Program-made: the position numbers and the translations under genes | Notes under the pieces: generated by a model | The model's database searches: none | What the model saw: the letters and a program-made list of their open reading frames with translations, nothing else | Told to the model about the DNA's origin: nothing | Part shown: piece after piece, positions 3,652-25,096 of the stretch | Layout of the letters: each line of letters starts with the position of its first letter | How positions within the stretch are numbered: position 1 is the first letter of the stretch | Assembly (NCBI GenBank): GCA_026391915.1 | Contig: JAPLCZ010000257.1 | Span: 5,691-69,690 of the forward strand | Direction: 5' to 3' | DNA: 64,000 bases | DNA from: Bacteroidota bacterium | GTDB lineage: Bacteria > Bacteroidota > Bacteroidia > CAILMK01

Positions 3652-6531
3652 ATGAGGAGAATAATTAGTCTTCTGGTGTCCTTACTTTGTTTTATTTCTG
3701 TTTATTCTCAGAAAACATCAACCATAAAAGGAGTAGTAAAAGACGCAACAACAGGTGAACCTTTAATAGGTGCTTCTGTAAGCTATGATGTAGGGAAAGG
3801 AACAATTACAGAGTTGGATGGCTCTTATAAATTAACGCTGGATACGGGGGTTTACACTTTCACAATTTCCTTTATTGGGTACGTGGAAACAACTGCAAAA
3901 GTTAAAGCAAATAGAAACACTGTAGTAGCGGATTTTACCCTAGACATCAAACCCATGAAAGAAGTAGAAATTGTGGGAGACGTGGCAAAAATAAGGGAAA
4001 CTCCTGTGGCATTTGCCAACGTAAATGCACAACAAATAAAAGAAGAATTAGGTGCAAGAGATTTACCCATGCTCTTGAATAGTACCCCAGGCGTATATGC
4101 AACCCAAACTGGTGGTGGCAAAGGAGATTCACGAATTAATATTCGTGGGTTTGACCAAAAGAATGTTGCGGTAATGGTGGATGGCGTACCCGTAAATGAT
4201 ATGGAAAATGGCTCAGTGTTTTGGAGTAATTGGGAGGGGCTTGGTGATGTAACTCGCAGCATGCAAGTACAGCGCGGGTTAGGCGCTTCCAAACTTGCAA
4301 TTCCCTCAGTAGGTGGTACCATAAACATTATTACAAAAGGAATAGAATCCAAACCTGGAGGAAGCATAAGACAAGAAGTTGGTAGTTTTGGATTTGAAAA
4401 AACTTCCTTTGGCTACACTACAGGGCTTATCAATAAGAAATTTGGAGTTACTGTGGCAGGAAGCCATAGCACTGGCAACGGATATGTTGACCAAACCAAT
4501 TTTACTACCTGGAGCTACTTTGTAAAAGTGCAATACATTGCAGGCAAACACCTATTAAGCCTTGGAGGAAACGGCTCTCCACAACAACATCAGCAAAGGT
4601 CATTTTCTCAGCCAATGCCAGTGTTTGATAAAGCTTATGCAAAGACCTTTGGCATTGACACAGACTCCTCTTTAAAGGCATCTGGTTTTAGCAATGCAAA
4701 CCATGATGACAGAGGTTTAAAATTCAATCCTTTTTGGGGTACTTTAACCCGTGATGGCAAAACAGAAAACCTGAACGAGAAGGTCAATTTTTACCACAAG
4801 CCCCAGTTCAGTTTTTCTGATAATTGGACTATCAATGATAAATTAACTTGGTTTAATATCGCGTATCTTTCTATAGGCAATGGTGGCGGTACACAACTCT
4901 TTAATACCGCTATTACCAGAGCCCCCGAAACAGGACAATACAACTTGCAACAGGTGTATGATAACCAGATTTCTGATAAGGCTATTGATAAGTTTTATAG
5001 TTCTACTTTTCACAAATCCAGCAACATAATTCTGGCATCTAACAATGACCACAAATGGTACGGATTGCTCTCTAACATTCAATATAAAATGAATGATAAT
5101 TTTACCTTTACAGGGGGCTTGGATGTACGGAATTATCAAGGCTCACATTATAGAACTGTGTACGATTTATTAGGTGGTAATTATTTTATTGACCAAGCCA
5201 ATAATAGCCAACCCAAGATATTAGCGCCTGTTGCCCCATCCACTACGCCACGCAATGCAGCATATTCCATGAAAACCACTTGGGATAAAATTGCCTACTA
5301 TAATGATGGCTTAGTAAGATGGTTTGGGCTCTTTACTCAGGCAGAATATAAGCGCAATAATTTCAGTTGCTTTGTTACGGTTACGGTTTCGGAAACGCAG
5401 TATAAAAGAGTAGATTATTTTGCCAAAAAAGACCTCATAATTAATGGTAAAAAAATCAGTCAGGCTGTTGGTTGGGGAGATACCATGCTTTATGACGGTA
5501 CACGTTCAATCACCTATAATCAAAACAATAATTCTCAGCTAAAAAAGAAAGGTGACACTACTTTTCTGGGAACTAAATATGTGGTGAATCCTAAATCTTA
5601 TACCATGAATTCTACTGAAGCCAATACGTCTTCTACAAATTGGAGAACCTTCTTTGGCTACACTATTAAAACAGGTGCTAACTACAATTTCAATAGCCAT
5701 TTTAATGCATTCCTAAACCTAGGATATATGAGTATGGCACCTCGCTTTAATAATGTTTTTGATAATAACAATCATGAGTTTTTTGAAACAAAAAATCAGT
5801 TTGTTAAAGCCATTGAAATGGGTTTTGGAACAAGGTATTCTGGCGTTGCCACCAACCTTAATCTGTACTATACTGATTGGCAAAATAAACCCTTGGATGT
5901 TGTTAAATCCTTCACCACTCCTGATGGTACTTTCTATACCAATATCAATGGGATGAATGCCATCCACAAAGGAGTAGAGCTTGACTTTGCCTATTCTCCA
6001 CTTCCTCGTTTAAAAATAGAAGGACTTGCTTCAATAGGCGATTGGAAATACAACTCAGCCAAGAAGGTTTACATCTATGACCAGTCCGATGTATTGCGTG
6101 ATTCCGTTGATTTTTCTGCAAAGAATGTTCATGTGGGCAACGCAGCACAATCACAATTTGGTTTGGGCTTTAGGTATGAGGTTTTCAAAGGTTTTTACAT
6201 CAAACCCCGCTTCACATATTTTGGCAGACAATACTCCGCTTTTGACCCCCTTGCACTCACTATAAACTATGATAGCAAAGGCAAGCTCATTAAAGATGAC
6301 CGCGACAGAGAATCATGGAGAGTGCCTGATTATTTTCTGTTAGATGTTTACACCGGCTACGAAATTTCTCTTTGGAAAATAAGGATGAGTATTACAGCAG
6401 GGGTTATCAATATCCTCAATAAAGAATACATTGCTGATGCTACCAATGGTGGTAGTTTTAATGCGTCTTCTTCCACGGTTTTCTTTGGTGGGCCAAGGCG
6501 GTTTCAGGTTGGGGTTGGGGTGTATTTCTAA
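3652..6531 (+). CDS. TonB-dependent outer-membrane receptor (N-terminal carboxypeptidase-regulatory-like domain plus plug plus barrel)
   Basis: Signal peptide. KGVVKDATTGEPLIGASV (CarbopepD_reg-like). Plug motifs (RDLPMLLNSTPGVYATQ, INIRGFDQKNVAVMVDGVPVND). 959 aa ending in an aromatic (...VGVYF). Confidence 0.85.
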   Translation: MRRIISLLVSLLCFISVYSQKTSTIKGVVKDATTGEPLIGASVSYDVGKGTITELDGSYKLTLDTGVYTFTISFIGYVETTAKVKANRNTVVADFTLDIKPMKEVEIVGDVAKIRETPVAFANVNAQQIKEELGARDLPMLLNSTPGVYATQTGGGKGDSRINIRGFDQKNVAVMVDGVPVNDMENGSVFWSNWEGLGDVTRSMQVQRGLGASKLAIPSVGGTINIITKGIESKPGGSIRQEVGSFGFEKTSFGYTTGLINKKFGVTVAGSHSTGNGYVDQTNFTTWSYFVKVQYIAGKHLLSLGGNGSPQQHQQRSFSQPMPVFDKAYAKTFGIDTDSSLKASGFSNANHDDRGLKFNPFWGTLTRDGKTENLNEKVNFYHKPQFSFSDNWTINDKLTWFNIAYLSIGNGGGTQLFNTAITRAPETGQYNLQQVYDNQISDKAIDKFYSSTFHKSSNIILASNNDHKWYGLLSNIQYKMNDNFTFTGGLDVRNYQGSHYRTVYDLLGGNYFIDQANNSQPKILAPVAPSTTPRNAAYSMKTTWDKIAYYNDGLVRWFGLFTQAEYKRNNFSCFVTVTVSETQYKRVDYFAKKDLIINGKKISQAVGWGDTMLYDGTRSITYNQNNNSQLKKKGDTTFLGTKYVVNPKSYTMNSTEANTSSTNWRTFFGYTIKTGANYNFNSHFNAFLNLGYMSMAPRFNNVFDNNNHEFFETKNQFVKAIEMGFGTRYSGVATNLNLYYTDWQNKPLDVVKSFTTPDGTFYTNINGMNAIHKGVELDFAYSPLPRLKIEGLASIGDWKYNSAKKVYIYDQSDVLRDSVDFSAKNVHVGNAAQSQFGLGFRYEVFKGFYIKPRFTYFGRQYSAFDPLALTINYDSKGKLIKDDRDRESWRVPDYFLLDVYTGYEISLWKIRMSITAGVINILNKEYIADATNGGSFNASSSTVFFGGPRRFQVGVGVYF

Positions 6532-6541
6532 GGAAGTATTC

Positions 6542-7411
6542 TTACTTTTTAACCACGGTTTTTGTGGATAGATTCCCATCAGAATTTACCCTGATAAAAT
6601 AGATACCTCTTGGCAAATCCTTCATGTTAAATGAAGCGCTACTTTCCACCAAAGAAGTCTTGAACTCTGCCACTGTTTTCGCAGAAAAATCGGATACCTC
6701 AACAATATTATTTTCGGATTGCAGCGGGAAGACAATATTAACGTCCTCCGTAACCGGATTAGGGAATATTTTAATCCCTGATTCATTAGCATTTTTATCT
6801 TCAATTGTCGTTATCACCTTACCCGTTACTTTTACATTATTAAACTGATAATTGCTGGTAGCCAATGTTGATTTTGCCACCCAACTTATCCAGTTTTTTT
6901 TTGCAATATCTGCTTTGGCTGGTAATGAGACCGGCACGCCCCCATTGGTTTGCTGCCGCTTAGAAATCCCTAAATTATTAAAGCTGTGCGGAAGGCTATC
7001 TTAGGTCTTACCACTATCAATACTGAAATCCACGTGCAAGGTAGAAAAATTTACCCATTTGGTGCTAATTCTCTCACTCCAAATCATTTTTATATTCTTA
7101 TAACCCTTTGCCGGGATGCCTGTACTAAAGGTAACTGCCACATCAGTATTAAGCCTTATCACCTTATTATCGCACATAAAAGTGTATTGGTCTCTGGGGG
7201 ATAACGAGTCCAGTTTATTGGGCTTTTGGTTGTCAAAACTCCATGCAGAATCTGTTGCAGAATTCACCCAACCCGTTGGCAATGCGGGGGAATTCATGGA
7301 GTCCGCCACCGAATTAAAATTATTGGTGTATAAAACAATTTGGGCAGATGTTTTTTGGCTCAAACAGAAAACAGAAATGCAGGATAAAAGTACTACGGTT
7401 AAATTTTTCAT
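6542..7411 (-). pseudogene. T9SS cargo protein gene interrupted by a single in-frame TAA stop (N-terminal signal-peptide part 7001-7411, C-terminal sorting-domain part 6542-6937)
   Basis: Both ORF pieces are in the same reading frame (codon phase identical mod 3), separated only by TAA at 7001-7003. The upstream piece has a signal peptide (MKNLTVVLLSCISVFCLSQKTSAQ). The downstream piece is a lone T9SS CTD (GIYFIRVNSDGNLSTKTVVKK) that starts at GTG, not ATG. Confidence 0.45.
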
Positions 7412-7472: not shown

Positions 7473-8729
7473 CTATCTTTTTCTCAAATCCAGCTTCCTT
7501 AAAACTGGGTTGGCGAGGCTTATAAATCCTACAACAATTAAGGTCATGCAACCACCAATAATTACGGATGGTGCTACCCCAAACCAACGGGCAGTTACGC
7601 CACTTTCAAACTCCCCTAACTCATTGCTGCTGCCTATAAACATTGAGTTTACCGCAGCCACCCTACCACGCATATTGTCGGGGGTCATGTTTTGCAAAAT
7701 AGTACCACGAATCACCACGCTTACGTTATCCAAACCGCCGCTAAGGGCAAGCACAAAAAGAGAAAGAAAGAAATTTTGTGAGAGCCCAAAAACAATGATG
7801 CAAGCACCAAAACCTGCCACACAAATCAGGAGTTTTCTGCCAGTGTTTTTGGTGGGAGGGTAATGCGCCATTACCAATGCAGTAATCACCGCACCTGCTG
7901 CGGGTGAAGCTCTTAAAATTCCCAAACCAGCTGCGCCAATATGCAATATATCATGGGCGAAAAACGGCAACATTGCCACTGCCCCGCCAAAGAGTACGGC
8001 AAACAAATCAAGGCTCAGCGCACCCAAAATTATTTTGTTATTAAAGATAAAACGGAAGCCGGAGGTCAGGCTGTCATAAATGCTTTCTTCTTTGTTGGGG
8101 GGTAGGGGTTTTCTCTTCTTTATTTTGGTGATAAAATAAAAGGCAGCGAGGAGTAAAACCCCACAAAAAACTAATGCAGTTTGGGCATTGGCAAAGCCAT
8201 AAATAAAACCTCCTGTGGCTGGGCCTGCCACTGCCGCTACTTGCCATGCGGTGCTATTCCAAGTGGCGCCGTTGGTGTAGAGGTTTTTGGGTAATATCTG
8301 CGCAAAAAGTGAAAAGACAGATGGACCCATAAAGCCTCTTGCAAGCCCTCCTAAAAAAGAAATAGCGTAAATAAAAGAAACGTTTTTATGTGTGAAAATT
8401 TGTCCTGCATCACTAGCAATAAACAGCAAGCCCAAAGTGCAAAAAATATAAACCAGTGTGGTGAAAATAAGAATAGTTCTGCGGTCTTTTCTATCTACAA
8501 TATGGCCAGCATATAATCCCACCGCAATGGCAGGGATGATTTCTGAAAGCCCCACCAAACCAATACTTAAGGGGTCATGAGTTAGGGCATACACCATAAG
8601 GCTGATAATTACCGCCTGCATCTGCAAAGCAAAAGTGATAGAGAAACGGGCTGCAGCAAATAGGCGATATTCGGGTACTTTTAAAGCGGCATAAGGGCTG
8701 GCATCAGGCAGGGCAGTTTGCATGTGCAA
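7473..8729 (-). CDS. MFS family transporter
   Basis: 418 aa with about 12 hydrophobic segments. MFS-like motifs (GHIVDRKDRRTIL, loop GRKLL). Confidence 0.7.
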   Translation of the reverse strand: MHMQTALPDASPYAALKVPEYRLFAAARFSITFALQMQAVIISLMVYALTHDPLSIGLVGLSEIIPAIAVGLYAGHIVDRKDRRTILIFTTLVYIFCTLGLLFIASDAGQIFTHKNVSFIYAISFLGGLARGFMGPSVFSLFAQILPKNLYTNGATWNSTAWQVAAVAGPATGGFIYGFANAQTALVFCGVLLLAAFYFITKIKKRKPLPPNKEESIYDSLTSGFRFIFNNKIILGALSLDLFAVLFGGAVAMLPFFAHDILHIGAAGLGILRASPAAGAVITALVMAHYPPTKNTGRKLLICVAGFGACIIVFGLSQNFFLSLFVLALSGGLDNVSVVIRGTILQNMTPDNMRGRVAAVNSMFIGSSNELGEFESGVTARWFGVAPSVIIGGCMTLIVVGFISLANPVLRKLDLRKR

Positions 8730-8764
8730 AGGAAAGAAATCTTCTGCTCTTTTTTACAAATGGC

Positions 8765-8790
8765 AAAGCCCTGCGGTTTTGCAGGGCTCT
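8765..8790. terminator. Stem-loop AGCCCTGC-GGTTTT-GCAGGGCT
   Basis: Perfect 8-bp inverted repeat directly upstream of the MFS gene start and downstream of the tandem repeat. Function unclear. Confidence 0.3.
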
Positions 8791-8813
8791 ACTGTTTATT
8801 GATTAAGCGGAAA

Positions 8814-8977
8814 AGGCTATTGTTTTATGCGTTACAAACGCATGTTTAAATAATCCGCGTTGCAAACGCGGACTATTGGGGGCTTTGCACTATGTAGTAA
8901 GCGGAAAAAGCGTATTGTGTTATGCGTTATAAACGCATGTGTAAATAATCCGCGTTGCAAACGCGGACTATTGGGGG
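8814..8977. repeat. Two tandem copies of an ~84-bp element, each carrying two perfect hairpins (ATGCGTT-aca-AACGCAT and TCCGCGTT-gca-AACGCGGA)
   Basis: Copy 1 is 8814-8882 and copy 2 is 8898-8977, about 90% identical. Sits between the MFS gene start and the 3' end of the SBBP-protein operon. REP-like or terminator function is possible. Confidence 0.8.
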
Positions 8978-8979
8978 AT

Positions 8980-10575
8980 TTACTCAACCACCAATTTACT
9001 AACGACCCTCACCTTCTCATTTTGTACTAAGATAAAATACATACCATCTGGCAATGCAGAAACATCTATTTCTTTAATGAGTCTGCCTTCTGAGTTTGGG
9101 GTTTGGTTGAGTTGTATAAGTTGTTTGCCTAGTATATCTGAAATAGTAATACTGGTGTTGGTTTGCGGTAGATTATTTACTTCTAAAGTTATGGTGGAGG
9201 TTGTAGGGTTGGGGTAAAAAATAAAATTAGAAAAAGTTTTGGATTCTTGTACGGCAGTGGTTGAATCTCCTAAATAAGCAATATAAACATTCTTATTTGC
9301 TGGAAAATTGGTGGTATCTGTAGAATCACGAATTGAACCACCAAAAACATATATGCCATTGCCTAATGAAACTGAGCAATTACTTATACTACCTTGACCA
9401 ACTCCTTTTTTAGAAATAATATTACCTTGATTATTTAAATTTAAAAGGCAGATATAATGATTGCCGAATGTTGCAAAATCAGAATCTTTGCTGTAAACCA
9501 AACAAGAAACAATATAACCACTATCATCATCTAATTCTACAGAAATGGCATAATCACTATGTGTACTACCATAAGATTTAACCCACTCCTTTTTTCCATA
9601 TCTATCTACCTTTACAATAAAGGCATCTGTATAACCTAAATTATTCTTTAAATCTCCATCATTGGAAAGAGTATATCCAACGGCGATGTAACCCTTGTCT
9701 TTGGTAATTTTCACATCTGTGAAGACATCCTCGCCAGCCCCACCATAGGCATAACCCCAAAGTTTATTTCCGTTTTTATCCAGTCTAATAAGCCATCCAT
9801 CCCCACCCCAATGAACATTTTTTACCACACTATCATACTGAGACGACCCGTTTGCACAAACTATAAATCCTGAATCCTGAGTAACTAATATCTTTTCCGC
9901 ATATTCATAAGTACTAGTACCATAAGTTTTTTGCCAAAGCATTTCGCCAATTTTATTTAATTTAATAATCCAGATATCAGCACTTATATAATGATATTTC
10001 ACATCACCACTATCTGATTTTGTATATCCGGCGAGAACTATTCCACTATCTGGTGTTATTGCAACAGCATAAGGTTCATCTTCTTGATAACCCCCGTAAG
10101 TTTTCTGCCAAATAATACTTCCATTTCTATCTAACCTGAGAATCCAAAAATCAGCACTACCTAGATGACGCGTTATATCACCATCACCCGAATAAGAACT
10201 CCCCACAACTATATAACCACTATCTTTGTATAATATTATAGAAGTAATGTATTCTTGATTGCTTCCTCCATAGGTTTTCTGCCACTCCATTTTCCCCTGA
10301 TTATCTAATTTAATAAGCCAATAATCCCCATGATAATAGTCATCGCTTCCAGTGTCATGAGAGTAAGAAATATCCTTATCATTTGAGTAGGTTACGCAGC
10401 CAGCTAATATGCCACCATCTGGGGTAGCAATAATGCTTTGCACATAATCATCTTTAGAGCCTCCAAACTGTTTCTCCCAGATTACCTTTTTATTGTCAAT
10501 TGCACCATATCCATTGCTTACAAGACCAGCCATAATCATAAATAAACATAAAATTGGTTTTAGTCCGCTAACCAT
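8980..10575 (-). CDS. SBBP (beta-propeller) repeat protein with T9SS C-terminal sorting domain
   Basis: Signal peptide from the internal Met (MVSGLKPILCLFMIMAGLVSNGYG). At least 7 repeats of the WQKTYGGSxxDxxxSIxxTxDGGYIxxGxTxSxDGD type. C-terminal FIFYPNPTTSTITLEV...GMYFILVQ Por tail. The longer ORF-track start at 10641 would overlap the upstream gene. Confidence 0.65.
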   Translation of the reverse strand: MVSGLKPILCLFMIMAGLVSNGYGAIDNKKVIWEKQFGGSKDDYVQSIIATPDGGILAGCVTYSNDKDISYSHDTGSDDYYHGDYWLIKLDNQGKMEWQKTYGGSNQEYITSIILYKDSGYIVVGSSYSGDGDITRHLGSADFWILRLDRNGSIIWQKTYGGYQEDEPYAVAITPDSGIVLAGYTKSDSGDVKYHYISADIWIIKLNKIGEMLWQKTYGTSTYEYAEKILVTQDSGFIVCANGSSQYDSVVKNVHWGGDGWLIRLDKNGNKLWGYAYGGAGEDVFTDVKITKDKGYIAVGYTLSNDGDLKNNLGYTDAFIVKVDRYGKKEWVKSYGSTHSDYAISVELDDDSGYIVSCLVYSKDSDFATFGNHYICLLNLNNQGNIISKKGVGQGSISNCSVSLGNGIYVFGGSIRDSTDTTNFPANKNVYIAYLGDSTTAVQESKTFSNFIFYPNPTTSTITLEVNNLPQTNTSITISDILGKQLIQLNQTPNSEGRLIKEIDVSALPDGMYFILVQNEKVRVVSKLVVE

Positions 10576-10579
10576 GTTG

Positions 10580-11281
10580 TTATTTACATGGTGGTGACAG
10601 GATAGGATATGGTTCATTTGACCAAGGAAAATTAGTCTCACCCTTTTTTACAGTATATTGGCTTGGACAAATGATATTAAAACTACATCCCTTTTTCATG
10701 TAATTAGCTGAACAGGTAAATTTACCATCATTAGTAAAACCCTGTTTGACATAAAAAGAAATTTCTTCTCCACATTTTACTTCTATGCAATACTTCCAAC
10801 AATATGGTTCTTTTCTCTTAACAAAAGTTGTATTATCCAATATCAATTCTTTACTGGGGTCTTTTTTTATATACTTTTTTAATGAATCATAGTCATTTAT
10901 ATCCGAACAAATTATTAATTCTTGACTTGGCTCTCCAGACACTCCTCCCCATACCCCTCCTACCTTTTTATATGTTTGTATATTCAATGGGAAATTTTCA
11001 TAAGTGTCATATGTCAAGCAAACCTCAAACCCGACAAAGAATGAACTTTTGCCTGGTTGTATTTCAATATAAATATTGTTAGGTTTCGGGCATCCATTAT
11101 CATCAATTGTCATTTTAGTACCACCATAGTGAGTTATTGAGGTTGGGGCGCAGATTGTATTTATTCCTTGTGGCTCTGGTCTATTTTCCCCACACCCACA
11201 CCCGCAGTCCTCCTCAAAAGTACTTCTCCCATTGAATATATCATTAATCCTTGGGGTGTTTATGATATTAATCTTTCCCAT
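10580..11281 (-). CDS. Hypothetical Cys-rich protein (18 Cys, CGCGCG motif, no signal peptide)
   Basis: 233-aa ORF, 4 nt upstream of the SBBP gene and 5 nt downstream of the preceding ORF. No family recognised by eye. Confidence 0.5.
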   Translation of the reverse strand: MGKINIINTPRINDIFNGRSTFEEDCGCGCGENRPEPQGINTICAPTSITHYGGTKMTIDDNGCPKPNNIYIEIQPGKSSFFVGFEVCLTYDTYENFPLNIQTYKKVGGVWGGVSGEPSQELIICSDINDYDSLKKYIKKDPSKELILDNTTFVKRKEPYCWKYCIEVKCGEEISFYVKQGFTNDGKFTCSANYMKKGCSFNIICPSQYTVKKGETNFPWSNEPYPILSPPCK

Positions 11282-11286
11282 AATGC

Positions 11287-11997
11287 TTATGATTTATACA
11301 ACCTTGGTATCCACCTAAACATTACTTTGCCAGCACCAACAGTTATAGCACCAGCTAAGGCAGATATAATATCCAATCCCACTTGTGCGCTTGAAATAGT
11401 GGTATTTGGGCTTTCATCAAGTAGGCTTCTGCCACTTTGATACCCTAATAAAGCACCCTCCATAGCACAGGCTACCCATGTTTGTATGTTCATTCTGTTG
11501 TAAGCTGGATTACCGGGAGCAGGGTTGGTGATGTCGTTAAAAAAATTAGCCCAAGGTGCTACATTGTTATTTACCTCTTGAAACCAATATGTTACTGCTG
11601 CTTTGCCAATGGCGGTGGCTATAAATAGAGGTTTTTGCTGCTCAAGGCTTAAGCCTGATTTAGTGATATTATCTTCAACATCACCAATAAAATCTAATAA
11701 CGAAGCTACAGGTATTTGCAAAATACCCCTTAGCAAAGTTTCTGTTAAAGCATTTCCTGTGTATAATTCTGAATTAACATAGCCGTTAATAGAATTAGAT
11801 ATTACAGATTTTAATTCAATATCTGTAAGAGTAGTAGTTCCTGGTAGATAAAGAGGTTGCACATCAGCGTAAACCTGATTTATCAAATCCTGAATTGTAG
11901 TTGCAGGTGGCGGCGGAACGCCTAGTGCAACATTGCCCATTCCTGTCGCCCATTGTGTGCCAATGGATGTGTAAATGTTGATTGTTACTTGTGACAT
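11287..11997 (-). CDS. Hypothetical protein with glycine-zipper-like C-terminal hydrophobic segment
   Basis: 236 aa. The C-terminus VGLDIISALAGAITVGAGKVMF resembles small-xxx-small membrane-insertion motifs. No signal peptide. Confidence 0.5.
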   Translation of the reverse strand: MSQVTINIYTSIGTQWATGMGNVALGVPPPPATTIQDLINQVYADVQPLYLPGTTTLTDIELKSVISNSINGYVNSELYTGNALTETLLRGILQIPVASLLDFIGDVEDNITKSGLSLEQQKPLFIATAIGKAAVTYWFQEVNNNVAPWANFFNDITNPAPGNPAYNRMNIQTWVACAMEGALLGYQSGRSLLDESPNTTISSAQVGLDIISALAGAITVGAGKVMFRWIPRLYKS

Positions 11998-12044
11998 TTT
12001 TTTGTTTTTTGTTAGTGGATTATTTTAAAATTTAGTTTTTATTT

Positions 12045-12746
12045 TTATGGCACAGGCACAGTAATAATATCACTCCATTGCCCTACTTGCACGCCGTTTT
12101 TGCGGTAGATGCCGCGTATCCTCCAATTGGTGGGGATGGGTACTGTATTTACGTTTACGTTATCAAGATAATCAGGGTCTGGGTCTACCACTACTGTGGC
12201 AAAAGTGCCACTGCCTCTATCTATTTGCAGCTCCATGCCTTCTGCAGGGTGGCCTTCCCATCCCCAAAGGATATTATAAAAATCGCCTAAGCGCTGTGCT
12301 ACAAGGTGGGGTTTCCAAGTGGCAGGGTCATCAGGGCTGCCTTGCTCTATACCTATCAGGCGTAGGTCATTGCCATCAGTAGTGTTAAAATCAAGATGGG
12401 TTTTTATGCGGTTGCCAATGTAGGCGGCAAAAGTAAATACATCAAAAATAAGGTCAGCCGGAGGGGCGGCAAGCACGGGTTGGCTTGGGAAAGCCGTAGG
12501 CAAACCTGTGCCGGGGGTGGCTTTGATAACCGTGTTTTTAAAGGAGGTAACAGTGGTGTTGAAGGTGCGGATGGAGTTAAGCACGCTAAGGCAATAAGAG
12601 AAAATTGCTTTGCCTTTGGTGAGTTTGAGGATGTCCGCATCACTAATGCCATACTTAACTTTATAAGTAGGTAGCTTAAGGAGGAAATTGTCCAGACAGA
12701 TGTCTCTTAAGTTATCTGGGCGTGGGATGTAGAAGAGGTGTTTCAT
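12045..12746 (-). CDS. Hypothetical protein, first gene of the 4-gene operon
   Basis: 233 aa with no recognisable motifs and a beta-rich C-terminus. Preceded by a repeat-dense promoter region. Confidence 0.5.
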   Translation of the reverse strand: MKHLFYIPRPDNLRDICLDNFLLKLPTYKVKYGISDADILKLTKGKAIFSYCLSVLNSIRTFNTTVTSFKNTVIKATPGTGLPTAFPSQPVLAAPPADLIFDVFTFAAYIGNRIKTHLDFNTTDGNDLRLIGIEQGSPDDPATWKPHLVAQRLGDFYNILWGWEGHPAEGMELQIDRGSGTFATVVVDPDPDYLDNVNVNTVPIPTNWRIRGIYRKNGVQVGQWSDIITVPVP

Positions 12747-12850
12747 GTTTTTGTGTTTTAGTTTGGGGTTTATGTTTTATTAATTTGTTTGCATGAGGTA
12801 AGCATTTGCCATAAAGTGGTTTGGTAACGGGAAAATGTGCTGCCGTAAGA

Positions 12851-13043
12851 CTCTTGCAAGGGCATGTTTGCCGGCAACATGGGCATGTAAGCCTCTTGCA
12901 AGGGCTTGTAGGCCGTTACGCGGGCATATTTGGGAGAAATGTGGGCTTGTAATGCTCTTACAAGGGCTTGTAAGACTCTTACGGGAGCTTGTAAAAGGGC
13001 TACCGGAGGCAGTATGGCTTGTAGGCTTGTAGGCTTGTAGGCT
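12851..13043. repeat. Array of four CTCTT(G/A)CAAGGGC(A/T)TGTA-type motifs followed by (GGCTTGTA)x3.5 tandem octamer
   Basis: Motif copies at 12851, 12893, 12955 and 12975. Tandem octamer at 13015-13043. Located in the divergent intergenic region between the hypothetical operon (-) and the sensor kinase (+). Confidence 0.6.
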
Positions 13044-13231
13044 TCATAATTTTTAGCGGCTTCAAATGTATAAAATAATTTTTAAAGATTGGTACCACCT
13101 ACCCCACTTTTTTTTGCGGTAAAATTTTTGTAAAAATATTATATATGGTATAGGCATAAGGTAGGGGGTTGCGAGTTTAATTCGTGAATTAAAAATCAAA
13201 GGAAAAACTATTTTTATTCCACCCCCTACAC

Positions 13232-13247
13232 CCCCGCAAGCGGGGGA
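13232..13247. other. Perfect hairpin CCCCCGC-aa-GCGGGGG, flanked by longer-range inverted repeat GGTAGGGGGT...ACCCCCTACACC
   Basis: Read directly from the sequence at 13160-13250. Confidence 0.5.
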
Positions 13248-13332
13248 CATCACCCTGCTTAAAGTATTTCTAAAATGAATAGCATCCAACTTTAAACCTT
13301 AAACTTTAAACTGTTTTTCTGACCCCTGATAA

Positions 13333-13355
13333 CTGACCACTGACCACTGACCACT
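13333..13355. repeat. Tandem heptamer (CTGACCA)x3
   Basis: ctgaccactgaccactgaccact, about 30 bp upstream of the kinase ORF start. Confidence 0.7.
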
Positions 13356-13385
13356 AATTTCGCTGCTATAATATCCCATAGGTTT

Positions 13386-16300
13386 TTGAAGTTCCCCTCC
13401 TTACATAACAAACAGTTTTTATTTATTGGCATTGCACTAATTTTTATTGCATTGGCAGGGGATACTATTCTCAATGGCTTGGTGGAGAAAATCTATACCC
13501 GCTATGAGGTTTTTATTGCCAGAACTTCTCTGGAGAAAAAGCTAAAATCCGGTGCTGATTTATTGCAGCAAGCCAATGCCAAAGGGTTGGAAAACCTGAT
13601 GCATGAATCAGAATATTTCTACAAAACGGCAATTGAGGCTGGGGTTTATTTTTATGCGTATAGCGCCAACAGGGTTTTGTTTTGGACTGATAATTCTGTG
13701 TTCCCCAAAGAGGTTTTGGGGAACCAAAACGCTACCCTCACCCAATTGGATAATGGGTATTATGTGCAGCGGGAATTGCAGGGCAGGGATGCCATTTATG
13801 TAATCCTTATCCCCGTAAAATTCAGTTTTGATTTTGAAAATCAATACCTCTCCAACAGCTTTCAACTGGCACAATCTCGCATCATCAATTTTGATGTAAG
13901 CCCCATAAAAGATGCAGATGGCTATGAATTCAAAAATGAAAAAGATGATTTCCTTTTTAGCATAAAACCAATATTGCCTATCAAAAAAATAAAGCTCTGG
14001 AGTTGGATTTTCTTGATAGGATTTTTGATGTGTTTGGTATTTGTAAACCAAATTATTTTGGGTTTGCTGAGGAACAAAAACCAATGGCAAGGGGTAGGGG
14101 CTTTTGCTTTAACAATTATGGTTATTGTTGTTTTCTGGAAATGGATTCGCCTACCTGAATCGCTTTTTAGCAGGCAACTTTTCAACCCTCAATTATATGC
14201 AAGCAGCAATCTTTTGAGGTCATTGGGAGACCTCCTAATTTTTACTCTTTTGCTGGGGTGGGGAGTCTGGATTCTTACCAAAATAAAATCTCCTTCTCAG
14301 AAAAATCAAAGAACAATTAATGTAACCACGGGTTTAAGTTTCGCTTTGGTTTTTACCCTTAGTAGTTATATACAAGGCATCATCCGTGGGTTGGTGTTTG
14401 ATTCCAGTATTTCATTTGATTTGGGTAATGTTTTCGGGCTTAATTACTACAGCTTTTGCGGGTTGTTTATCATTGGCATTTTGTTGCTTTCGCTGGCAAT
14501 CATCATCATCAACGCTACAAGATATGTGATAGAAAATAACATCCCGGCATCACGCCAAATACTGATTGGGTTTGTGGCTGGGTTGGCTTCTGTGGTGGTG
14601 CTATACCCAACAGGGCATTTCCTCTATGCTTCCTTTCTTTTCAGCCCTTTTTTGTATCTTTTAATTTATTATTTGCAGCAGAAGGATGTGCAATTAACTG
14701 ACCTGCGCCCTGCTGGCTACATCAGTATTTTTTATGCTGTTTACACCTCAGTTTTATTGCTCTATTATAATGGGCAAAAACTCAAAGAGCATCAAAAAAT
14801 TCTTGCCTCAGAATTGATTTCGGAGAGAGACCTTGCTGCCGAATTTTTATTTGGTGATGTGTATGAGAACATCCGCAATGATGGCTACGCAAAATCCTTT
14901 TTTTATACAGCACTAATCTCACAGGCTTCCCTCTCAAAAAGGATAGAGCAACTTTATTTTTCTGGCTACCTAAGTAAGTATGATGTGGAGATTTTTACTT
15001 TCTCATTCACAGGTATGCCATTCAAAGGAAACCCTGATAAACCCCTTGATTTTTTCAGTGGGTTTATGAGTACTGAGTCCTCTACACGGGCAAGGGGCAA
15101 CTACCTCTTTTTTGTGAATACCTATTCGGGTTTGCCCACCTATATTTCAAAGATTGATATCACCCATAAGGGCAGAAATCTGGGCTCATTGGTTCTGCTT
15201 TTTCACCAAAAAGCATTCTATGAAGAAAGCGTATATCCTGAGCTTTTCCTCTCTGATAAAATCCGCCGCTACAATAAACTGGATGAGTATTCTTACGCCA
15301 TTTACAACGAAACAAAACTGGTAACACAGAAGGGCGAATATGCGTATCCTACCTTTTTAAAAGCGCCTTTTGTATCCCAAAATCAAATGCATTCTGCCAA
15401 CCTTGATGGCTTTGTTCACCACGTTTACCACACCGCACCCGGGCAGGTAATTGTAATTAGTGATAAAGAAAAAGGAGTGCTGTATTACTCCGCCAATTTC
15501 TCTTTTATCCTTATCTTTTTTGGGCTCTTTGCTTTGGTAATTATTTCAATGAATATTCTTTTGCGTAATTACATTTTGTACTTTAGGCTAAGGAAAAGTT
15601 TGCAGGATTTACTGGAGAAAATTCAATGGAAAAACATCACCTTCCGCACAAGAATTTTGAGTACTATTACCATCTCCATGACTTTGGCTTTGCTGGTGGT
15701 TGGGTTCACTACTATTAAATACATAAGCTATAGATATAATAATGATGAGTTGATTCGCCTCAACAAAAAGGCGCGTTCTATTGTTGCAAATCTTGAGGGT
15801 ATTATGAAAAATAATGAGCCCTTTCATTTTATGAGTGACGATGAAAAAACAGCCATCATAAAAAACCTTTCCGGCAGTTACCAAACGGATATAAATCTGT
15901 TTGATACCAAAGGGAATTTGATGGCGACTTCCCAGCCTCTCATCTATGATAAAAAAATTCTGCAACCCAAGATGAATGCCTCGGCAAGGATTGCATTGAG
16001 GGCAGGGTTGCAATCCAGAGTAATGCAGGAGGAGAATATTGGGAAGCTTAATTACCTCTCTACCTACCTGCCTGTGCACAATGGCAATAACCAAATAGAG
16101 GCCTATCTCAACCTCCCATTTTTTACCCGTGAGAAACAATTGAATGACGATATCTCTTCTTTTTTGGTGGCGTTGGTAAACATTTATATGTTCATGTTTG
16201 TGGCGTTTCTTGCCATCAGCGTGTTGATTGCAAACACGCTTACAGCGCCCCTGAATATCATCCGCAAACACCTTAGCACAACACGACTTAATTCTGCCAA

Positions 16301-24623: not shown

Positions 24624-25096
24624 ATCGTGGCGGCAGTTCATCATTTCTTAACGCACTTTGGCGGAAATACAGAATGGCAAAACAAAAAAACAATAAATTT
24701 TTTGCATCAGATTTCGGAAATGGTAGTAAGTTAGTAGCCTTATTAGTAATAGTAAGATAACAGGCACATATGAAACACATTTACACAAGCTTTTTAACTT
24801 CTTCATTATCAGCGTCAGCCATTGTTGCTGGGTGCGTTTTTGACAGATGAAGGTCTGAGTGAATGTGCAGCAATGCACCTTTTGTTCTCAACCAATCTAT
24901 CAATTATCTGCAACTGCCCAGTTTAAGCAATAACGAATTTTTGGCTAACGAGACTAAATTTTTAAAGGTATTAAAATCTCTCCTTTTGAGGAATGACAAT
25001 GTCATGTCCTCTTTCGTTTTGAAACGTATATATAATAACAAAACATTTTATATGGATAACAAACACAAAAATTTTCAAATAACTAAATTAACAGAC

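Follow-up and report, generated by a model that had tools for sequence, protein, structure and literature searches.

A four-gene cluster in a Bacteroidota genome read as two juxtaposed units: a repeat-led FN3 gene and a gene trio ending in a type IX secretion cargo

Introduction

Do three genes of no recognisable family and a gene for a secreted protein, closely packed on one strand, form a single operon with a single function, or are they separate units lying side by side? The question is raised by a locus in a stretch of 64,000 nucleotides (nt; hereafter the window) at positions 5,691 to 69,690 of contig JAPLCZ010000257.1, from the genome assembly GCA_026391915.1 of a Bacteroidota bacterium (lineage CAILMK01). 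Four genes, here called A to D, follow one another on its minus strand. According to the open reading frame (ORF) listing, gene A occupies 12045–12746 (233 amino acids, aa), gene B 11287–11997 (236 aa), gene C 10580–11281 (233 aa) and gene D 8980–10575 (531 aa counted from its ATG; the longest ORF begins earlier, at a GTG at 10641). The intergenic spacing is 47 nt between A and B, 5 nt between B and C, and 4 nt between C and D. Our analysis leans towards two juxtaposed units, a repeat-bearing leader with gene A and a B-C-D trio, rather than one system.

An initial annotation, drawn from the letters alone, had given the same four minus-strand genes, coordinates, lengths and gaps, and had read them as one operon in which three unrecognisable, non-secreted proteins accompany a secreted beta-propeller. 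Much of its description of the proteins holds up. Searches of Pfam, NCBIfam, PHROGs and PADLOC returned zero matches for A, B or C, hydropathy shows a hydrophobic N-terminus in none of the three, and both the CGCGCG run, which lies in C, and the hydrophobic glycine-zipper-like segment ALAGAITVGAGKV, which lies in B, are present. The 18 Cys that it counted in one protein are 14, in C. Sequence searches of the PDB with profiles of A and B and with the C sequence gave nothing meaningful, and the literature searched held no description of the A module or of B-C-D; neither matches a described family. ORFs of 233–236 aa are unlikely to be spurious in a window of 38% GC.

Results

Gene A and the B-C-D trio occur apart

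The initial annotation had named a survey of synteny among the checks on its four-gene unit, and missing synteny among the results that would count against it. The survey was run from both ends. Among the 85 loci fetched with homologues of A, there is not one with a B, C or D homologue; the 34 B loci from a metagenome scan, the source of all B contexts described below, likewise contain no A homologue. Synteny of the four-gene set is therefore not conserved. What does recur in independent metagenomic loci is B-(C)-D, so that the proposed coupling of unrecognised proteins to a secreted propeller stands for these genes, and A is not part of it.

The surroundings of A homologues show no recurring neighbour family. 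The genes 3' of A are unrelated to one another and include those for a PPC-domain protein, a transglutaminase, an FGE-sulfatase, TIR plus caspase, a dynamin-like protein, an IgGFc-binding protein, AAA, isochorismatase, CsgG, RelA_SpoT, ribF and an ECF sigma factor. Where the surroundings are informative, A is followed by its own terminator. The GC content at third codon positions (GC3) is 0.48 in A, against 0.28 in B, 0.27 in C and 0.25 in D. Taken together, the lack of co-occurrence, the varied neighbours, the GC3 contrast and the terminator of its own in some loci argue that A is separate from B-C-D.

In this genome the four genes may share one transcript. A candidate promoter −7 motif of the Bacteroidota type (TACATTTG, pattern TAnnTTTG; 13063–13070, minus strand), a motif match alone from a pattern scan, is the sole intergenic minus-strand match within 8700–13400 and lies directly upstream of the repeats that precede A. 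No terminator-like hairpin lies between A and B, the region's only two terminator-like matches being on the opposite strand. These two observations make a shared A-D transcript possible. Directly past the D stop codon begin two copies of a 95-nt repeat (8804–8981; Tandem Repeats Finder (TRF), repeat search and DNA search), each with two perfect hairpins, ATGCGTTACAAACGCAT and CCGCGTTGCAAACGCGG, and with no further copy in the window. The pair probably marks the end of the transcription unit and could be a terminator or a small repeat element.

The A family is widespread and its gene lies behind a 21-nt-period array

Gene A (P0001; homologues carry P numbers and their loci L numbers) has 37 relatives in an indexed protein search, including two paralogues (P0002, P0003) in the same metagenome-assembled genome (MAG), and 168 relatives in a scan of one genome per species, often with several copies per genome. 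They come from Verrucomicrobiota, Saprospiraceae, Chitinophagaceae, Cyclobacteriaceae, many Methylococcales, Nitrosomonadales, Thiodictyon and Zoogloea, a range that takes in Verrucomicrobiota, Bacteroidota and Gamma- and Betaproteobacteria. One carrier, at L059, is the cultivable Deminuibacter soli. No Pfam model matches any of the 37 members. The family is acidic (median isoelectric point (pI) 5.65, net charge −4) and lacks signal peptides. An AlphaFold2 model built from the 37-sequence alignment reached a predicted local distance difference test (pLDDT) score of 91.8. It shows a helical hairpin (residues 11–32 and 36–75), a proline-rich linker, a third conserved helix (103–115) and a C-terminal beta-sandwich; as modelled, the C-terminal half is a seven-stranded FN3 domain, and matches to A in BFVD are restricted to it. 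An origin as a phage or plasmid gene was considered and rejected, no relative being found in viral contigs, 50,697 phages or 72,556 plasmids.

In Methylococcales, the A module is 98.6% identical across two different MAGs with unrelated flanks, and the shared segment spans from about −716 nt to an intrinsic terminator about 60 nt past the stop codon. In three Crenothrix loci (L062, L068, L072) the A module is flanked, at about −950 and +80 of the gene, by direct repeats some 200 nt long that contain GC-rich hairpins, with a further copy upstream; this element could mediate movement of the module. In six A homologues (P0025, P0028, P0030, P0034, P0036, P0037) the N-terminus is extended by a conserved segment of some 60 aa containing the motif W.DPN..WGDPSY.LEPGDPGY, after which a basic stretch stands directly before the usual start methionine. 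Verrucomicrobiota A homologues in L006, L017, L019 and L020 have 7–10-nt A/C-rich repeats directly before the ATG.

Within the 640-nt region upstream of A, the window carries a tandem array of period 21 nt (12842–13015, minus strand; TRF and in-register listing), made of about 8–9 units such as AGCCCTTGTAAGAGTCTTACA. TRF delimits segments at 12845–12914 and 12943–12994, and several units have dyad symmetry. The 5' edge of the array is an 8-nt tandem repeat (13016–13044, minus strand, 3.6 copies; TRF and repeat search) that reads TACAAGCC on the coding strand and is identical to the core of the 21-nt unit. Comparable 8-nt runs precede the arrays in L010, L017 and L027.

The period recurs across the family. 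By unbiased autocorrelation over lags 5–69, the strongest lag was 21, 42 or 63 nt in 72 of 79 A upstream regions versus 6 of 72 control regions. TRF likewise found periods of 21, 42 or 63 nt in nearly every A locus, with up to 14 copies and with unit sequences unrelated between loci. The arrays lie 20–600 nt upstream of A; their median length is about 212 nt, and about 142 nt (median) separate the array end from the well-conserved A ATG. A common core is weak and CAACCGTTG-like (information content 4.36 versus a null of 2.43), and dyad symmetry is 2.2-fold enriched, not universal, at about 0.3 per unit.

Several simpler accounts of the array were tried. As 21 nt equal seven codons, a heptad-repeat coding region was considered and rejected, there being no period-3 variation (median permutation p 0.5); of 41 arrays, 18 lack an open sense frame, and in 12 all six frames contain stops. 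The sense strand is rich in C. In 63 of 70 loci its folding is better than that of shuffles, the antisense strand being the more stable in 46 loci and the sense strand in 23. An array of sense-strand RNA hairpins is thus not supported, since the antisense RNA folds more stably and the sense strand is C-rich. For the idea of a donor cassette, comparison of the array with the coiled-coil region of A gave a weak excess of common 10-mers (0.74 versus 0.29).

One Methylococcales clade has promoter-like blocks upstream of the array, and so does the window, where the block is the motif TACATTTG; the array thus probably belongs to a long leader. An exact period combined with free sequence, at a spacing of 21 bp or two turns of DNA, favours a role that depends on phase, a view that we hold loosely. 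The array would then act in cis, within the long leader or promoter region, and work through helical phase to control expression of an abundant cytoplasmic FN3 protein.

The B family joins a conserved domain to hypervariable Cys-rich tails

Gene B is predicted to be all-alpha and ends in a hydrophobic glycine-rich helix and WIPRLYKS, the window copy being tail-less. Just two relatives were found in the indexed search; an exhaustive profile search returned 293 cluster representatives, 230 of them at E ≤ 1e-10, giving a family of at least 293 clusters at 50% identity, found in contexts of the type IX secretion system (Bacteroidota type). In every member the B domain, about 235 aa long, is N-terminal. 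Its last element is a helix, conserved and hydrophobic, that reads ...SALIGALTIGAGKVIFxWIPRIQ and has a hydropathy borderline for a membrane span (median 1.62 over 19 residues; at least 1.6 in 53% of members), and a comparable segment occurs elsewhere in the domain in 1% of members. Neither B nor ten homologues gave an NCBIfam match over the N-domain, which places them outside the NHLP and Nif11 leader families.

Most members are fused to a hypervariable tail of 0–426 aa (median 61), in which Cys makes up 5.2% of residues versus 0.42% in the N-domain, a 12-fold difference. A Bacteroidota-type leader (LSLNKEVIANLN...GG) opens some tails, and GG occurs among the first 35 residues in 22 of 53. 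The tail of P0111, directly after the B domain, matches NF038153 (lant_leader_L1a, a class I lanthipeptide leader) at 24.1 bits, the cut-off being 22. Short tails often end in GCGCG(G)K/H, GCSCGS or NCGCH, as in GGCGCGGK, SGCGCGH and GGCSCGS. Such CxC-type C-terminal ends (GCGCGGK, GCGCGH, GCSCGS, NCGCH, GCNCGH, CNCK, KCC, QCC) occur in P0041, P0051, P0066, P0087 and P0096 and likewise in P0113, P0174, P0177 and P0184, and could be modification or metal-binding sites.

Two kinds of partner recur beside B homologues, and in some loci B copies stand in tandem. The first partner is a radical SAM/SPASM peptide maturase, found near tail-bearing B in eight loci (L094, L099–L102, L104, L109, L118), where the order is B then maturase, or B, an FGE-sulfatase/GldK-like protein with a signal peptide, then maturase. 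The best NCBIfam matches of these maturases are TIGR04463 'rSAM_vs_C_rich', CefB, PapB and the SCIFF maturase, all under their equivalog cut-offs. The maturases beside tail-bearing B, together with the one tail that passes the lanthipeptide-leader model, indicate that the B family includes precursors of the type that yields RiPPs, peptides made on the ribosome and modified after translation. A DesK/VraS-type histidine kinase and a NarL/VraR-type response regulator adjoin B in four loci (L089, L094, L108, L109), which is compatible with regulated peptide production. In L088, a thioredoxin-like periplasmic protein lies 3' of B.

The second partner is a protein with a Por_Secre_tail, the C-terminal sorting domain (CTD) of the type IX secretion system (T9SS). 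Beyond the window, such a protein lies 3' of B in six loci, L089, L106, L112, L113 (twice), L114 and L115, so that the series of B, variable ORF and T9SS protein is found in these as well as in the window. In these loci the order is a short-tailed or tail-less B, then, after gaps of 2–23 nt, between one and three ORFs lacking a signal peptide, and last the Por_Secre_tail protein. Some middle ORFs are Cys-rich, those of 296 and 355 aa holding 9 and 13 Cys; the middle ORF of L106 encodes another B homologue, one with a tail. Propeller repeats (Reg_prop, DUF5122, RCC1 or Rax2) are recognisable in four of the six CTD proteins (those of L089, L112, L113/L114 and L115). T9SS-CTD proteins account for 8 of 45 ORFs in the three positions 3' of B versus 3 of 124 elsewhere (Fisher p=0.0013), as counted with a home-made hidden Markov model built partly from the same hits and with the near-identical L113 and L114 counted twice.

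The ~235-aa FGE-sulfatase protein with a signal peptide, which stands between B and the maturase in L099, L101, L102 and L104, has as its best NCBIfam match the T9SS ring lipoprotein PorK/GldK (E=5e-13, partial). It hints at a second, independent link between the B family and the T9SS.

Gene D is a T9SS cargo

The N-terminus of gene D is signal-peptide-like (12-residue hydropathy 2.93), and its C-terminus matches PF18962 Por_Secre_tail at 56.3 bits (cut-off 27) and TIGR04183 at 45.1 bits (cut-off 23). On these sequence features D is classed as a T9SS type A cargo. The initial annotation had called it a T9SS-secreted SBBP propeller, of which the sorting domain stands, the SBBP assignment being below the family threshold. 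The match, to the LipL53 SBBP model, has E=1.7e-13 and reaches 50 bits where the family cut-off is 400, and it is accompanied by weak Kelch and delta-60 matches. The repeat-rich region is likely beta-propeller-like.

Gene D is one of four genes for T9SS sorting-domain proteins in the segment 454–10575: one with PLD-like plus FN3 plus CTD, one with Lamin-tail plus CTD, a broken gene, and D itself. The broken gene lies on the minus strand as a 136-aa signal-peptide ORF (7001–7411) and, 63 nt on, a 131-aa ORF that is essentially Por_Secre_tail alone (6542–6937). The two look like a single T9SS cargo gene broken by pseudogenisation or by an assembly error.

Gene C and the B/C junction

Gene C has 14 Cys, no signal peptide and no membrane span. 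Residues 23–33 read EEDCGCGCGEN, with the CGCGCG run at 26–31, which resembles the CxC-type short tails of B homologues. Sequence searches found no homologue of C, and its standing as a real gene is supported by ORF length and position alone. The motif and the position suggest that C may be a detached variable payload of B.

At the B/C junction (11279–11298, minus strand), the B stop codon TAA (11287–11289) is followed by the C start codon ATG (11279–11281) in the −1 frame, and frame analysis shows the C frame opening four codons ahead of that ATG. With one additional A in TATAAATCA, B and C would read through as a single frame of about 470 aa, like the long-tailed homologues. Separate B and Cys-rich ORFs recur with gaps of 12–22 nt in L112, L113 and L114, and these pairs make a genuine split at least as likely as a frameshift.

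Other features of the window

An Rfam search of 8700–13500 gave zero matches. At 13288–13355, two 7-nt tandem runs, AACTTTA (3.6 copies) and CTGACCA (5.3 copies), separate a divergent histidine kinase gene from the A leader. Further along, on the plus strand at 24863–45193, lies one ORF of 6776 aa (about 20 kb) whose GC3 of 0.26 is close in composition to B, C and D.

Discussion

On the two-unit reading, B would be an N-terminal carrier or long-leader domain of about 235 aa that binds or escorts C, and C a Cys-rich payload, which could be bacteriocin-like, serve in signalling, or form a module rich in metal or disulfides. D, exported by Sec and the T9SS, would be the extracellular partner of the payload; it might, for instance, bind it, offer a scaffold for its processing, or work at the surface in immunity or as a receptor. 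A more far-reaching interpretation of both halves we regard as doubtful. In it the array and A would be an undescribed two-part module spread horizontally over at least three phyla, and B-C-D a new Bacteroidota class of peptide or protein product. On the A side, the FN3 protein would have as its functional partner an array constrained in phase and arbitrary in sequence, which could be a phased DNA scaffold, each unit spanning two helical turns, or a repeat RNA by which the protein is titrated or assembled. On the other side, the 235-aa carrier domain and the T9SS-delivered propeller would replace the usual logic of leader, exporter and immunity.

A number of observations weigh against the two-unit reading and the roles proposed for its genes. 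The tight A-B spacing and the missing A/B terminator are compatible with co-transcription of all four genes. The folding and strand-skew tests of the array were ambiguous, and the acidity of the A family (pI 5.65) argues against A itself binding the array. The B model is poor (pLDDT 45.7, low confidence) and hence gives no fold evidence. C has no homologue, its payload role is based on position and the CGCG motif alone, and its N-terminus does not score with a mini-profile of leader-like tails. No maturase, C39/ABC exporter or peptidase is present at the window locus, so a RiPP-type route is not established for the B-C-D trio found there. Finally, four T9SS-CTD genes lie in the first 11 kb, and this density raises the chance level of CTD-gene adjacency, so that the position of D may in part be fortuitous; the enrichment behind B carries the limits given with its count.

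The alternative closest to the initial annotation is one functional operon of all four genes, in which A, B and C would work together with the secreted propeller D as a novel system, either secretion-associated or of toxin/immunity type; we consider it very improbable. It is suited by the common strand, by gaps of 47, 5 and 4 nt, by a hairpin-rich repeat 3' of D with no terminator-like hairpin between A and B, and by the only intergenic TAnnTTTG motif sitting upstream of the A leader. Against it stand the absence of B, C or D from 85 A loci and of A from 34 B loci, the convergent or unrelated genes that come after A elsewhere, with its own terminator in some loci, and a GC3 of A strongly unlike that of B-C-D. 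Comparative genomics largely refutes it; for B-C-D taken alone, a toxin/immunity or secretion-associated set is possible. A different function for the A unit, as a type III-like toxin-antitoxin or defence module whose 21-nt repeats are processed into small RNAs that neutralise A, would account for tandem direct repeats 5' of a single gene, for a multi-copy module in shifting contexts and for defence-like neighbours (TIR plus caspase, RelA_SpoT, dynamin-like, AAA). The promoter-like block 5' of the array in one clade and the window also fits, and the authors of a survey of such systems anticipated additional type III families (PMC3401426). Type III loci are, however, defined by a terminator between the repeats and the toxin gene (PMC3401426), and for the array with A one is found in just 3 of 70 loci, on which ground a type III architecture was rejected. 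In addition, A is an acidic helical plus FN3 protein and not a ToxN/AbiQ-type endoribonuclease, PADLOC returned nothing, the collections searched hold no plasmid or phage copies, and the unit is 21 nt long compared with 36 nt in ToxI, the single case compared (PMC3401426). A neutralised toxin is accordingly a decidedly improbable role for A.

Within the trio, the two halves B and C could instead be one gene split by a 1-nt frameshift, as a pseudogene or through a homopolymer error in the MAG. The placing of C 5 nt past B in the −1 frame, with its frame opening four codons before the ATG, is what such a lesion would leave. The ORF of about 470 aa restored by one extra A in TATAAATCA would be laid out like P0052, P0059, P0063 and P0166, and the broken look of the nearby T9SS gene (7001–7411 with the signal peptide, 6542–6937 with the CTD) keeps such an error in play. 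Yet B and Cys-rich ORFs with ATGs of their own stand apart in L112, L113 and L114, the C ATG sits exactly where the frame opens, and four B homologues (P0048, P0054, P0040, P0139) end naturally just after the helix, all of which makes a frameshift unlikely in our judgement. We also think it improbable, to about the same degree, that B proteins are tail-anchored membrane proteins displaying variable disulfide-bonded ectodomains, as polymorphic surface or contact-dependent toxin or adhesin modules; a similarly low standing goes to its extension, with C as a detached ectodomain and D as a T9SS-delivered surface partner. The hydrophobic conserved helix (median 1.62, 53% reaching 1.6, and 1% elsewhere), tails of up to 426 aa that exceed the typical RiPP core length, the conserved N-domain with a hypervariable C-terminus as in polymorphic toxins, and the thioredoxin-like periplasmic protein 3' of B in L088 are in its favour. 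Surface display fits poorly with radical SAM/SPASM maturases, which are cytoplasmic enzymes, beside tail-bearing B in eight loci, and with a tail that is a bona fide lanthipeptide-type leader. No toxin domain was recognised in C in Pfam, NCBIfam, PHROGs or PADLOC, and C, separately translated with neither signal peptide nor membrane span, could not reach the periplasm by this route.

Both units matter beyond this genome. Conservation of the array period without conservation of its sequence across Verrucomicrobiota, Bacteroidota and Proteobacteria is an unusual constraint, and explaining the array with A would account for a 'hypothetical protein' that is common, and multi-copy, among bacteria of fresh water and sediment. 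With its B domain, a large family beyond any Pfam or NCBIfam model is defined, whose hypervariable Cys-rich tails are linked to radical SAM/SPASM maturases in some loci and to T9SS-sorted propellers in others. If the tails are processed products, genome mining in Bacteroidota would gain a new family of long-leader precursors. The fused and split forms of B are a natural experiment on the role of a leader domain, and the recurrent propeller partner hints at an undescribed link between a peptide product and the T9SS.

Among known systems, iteron-type replication and partition regions have direct repeats upstream of rep or par genes, at a spacing of about two helical turns. The arrays of A loci are like these in having 3–14 direct repeats with a 21-bp period, partly dyad-symmetric, that travel with the downstream gene. 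They differ in that A has no winged-helix or ribbon-helix-helix fold, is acidic and has no partner NTPase, and in that the A loci are chromosomal, with no copies of A in the plasmid or phage collections. An iteron replicon or partition site was rejected, since the fold and charge of A and the lack of plasmid or phage homologues do not agree with a DNA-binding Rep or centromere protein. The toxIN, cptIN and tenpIN systems (PMC3401426) share with the A module a tandem array 5' of one protein gene and a repeat sequence that varies among homologues, whereas the A locus has a 21-nt unit, a terminator in 3 of 70 loci and an acidic FN3 protein in place of an endoribonuclease. Failing both the type III toxin-antitoxin and the iteron comparison, the A module is without a close analogue.

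Long-leader RiPP precursor families with nitrile-hydratase-like (NHLP) and Nif11-like leaders were reportedly described by Haft, Basu and Mitchell in 2010. Like these and precursors with Bacteroidota double-glycine or class I lanthipeptide-type leaders (NF038153), the B family has a large conserved N-domain, a hypervariable Cys-rich C-terminus and, in eight loci, adjacent radical SAM/SPASM maturases; in one member the segment that follows the B domain directly passes as an NF038153-type leader, and the histidine kinase and NarL-type regulator beside B in four loci are a further resemblance to long-leader RiPP precursors. The B domain, at about 235 aa, is more than twice the length of the NHLP and Nif11 leaders and has no NCBIfam or Pfam match, its tails reach hundreds of residues, and at the window locus there is no maturase, peptidase or exporter and the 'core' is a separate 233-aa ORF. 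A pairing with a T9SS-sorted propeller is not known for RiPP clusters, nor described for them in the literature searched; as a T9SS type A cargo, D itself is ordinary, and what is unusual is its recurrent place behind B-family genes. Polymorphic toxins join a conserved N-terminal trafficking domain to a variable C-terminal toxin, with an adjacent immunity gene. The B family shares their conserved N-domain with variable C-terminal modules, tandem copies and varying downstream partners, and differs in that B-C-D has no recognised toxin or immunity domain, no link to a type VI secretion system, Rhs or contact-dependent inhibition, and a secreted propeller as partner instead of a small cytoplasmic immunity protein. 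The nearest documented context for B-C-D is that of RiPP/bacteriocin-type precursors rather than that of a new secretion machine.

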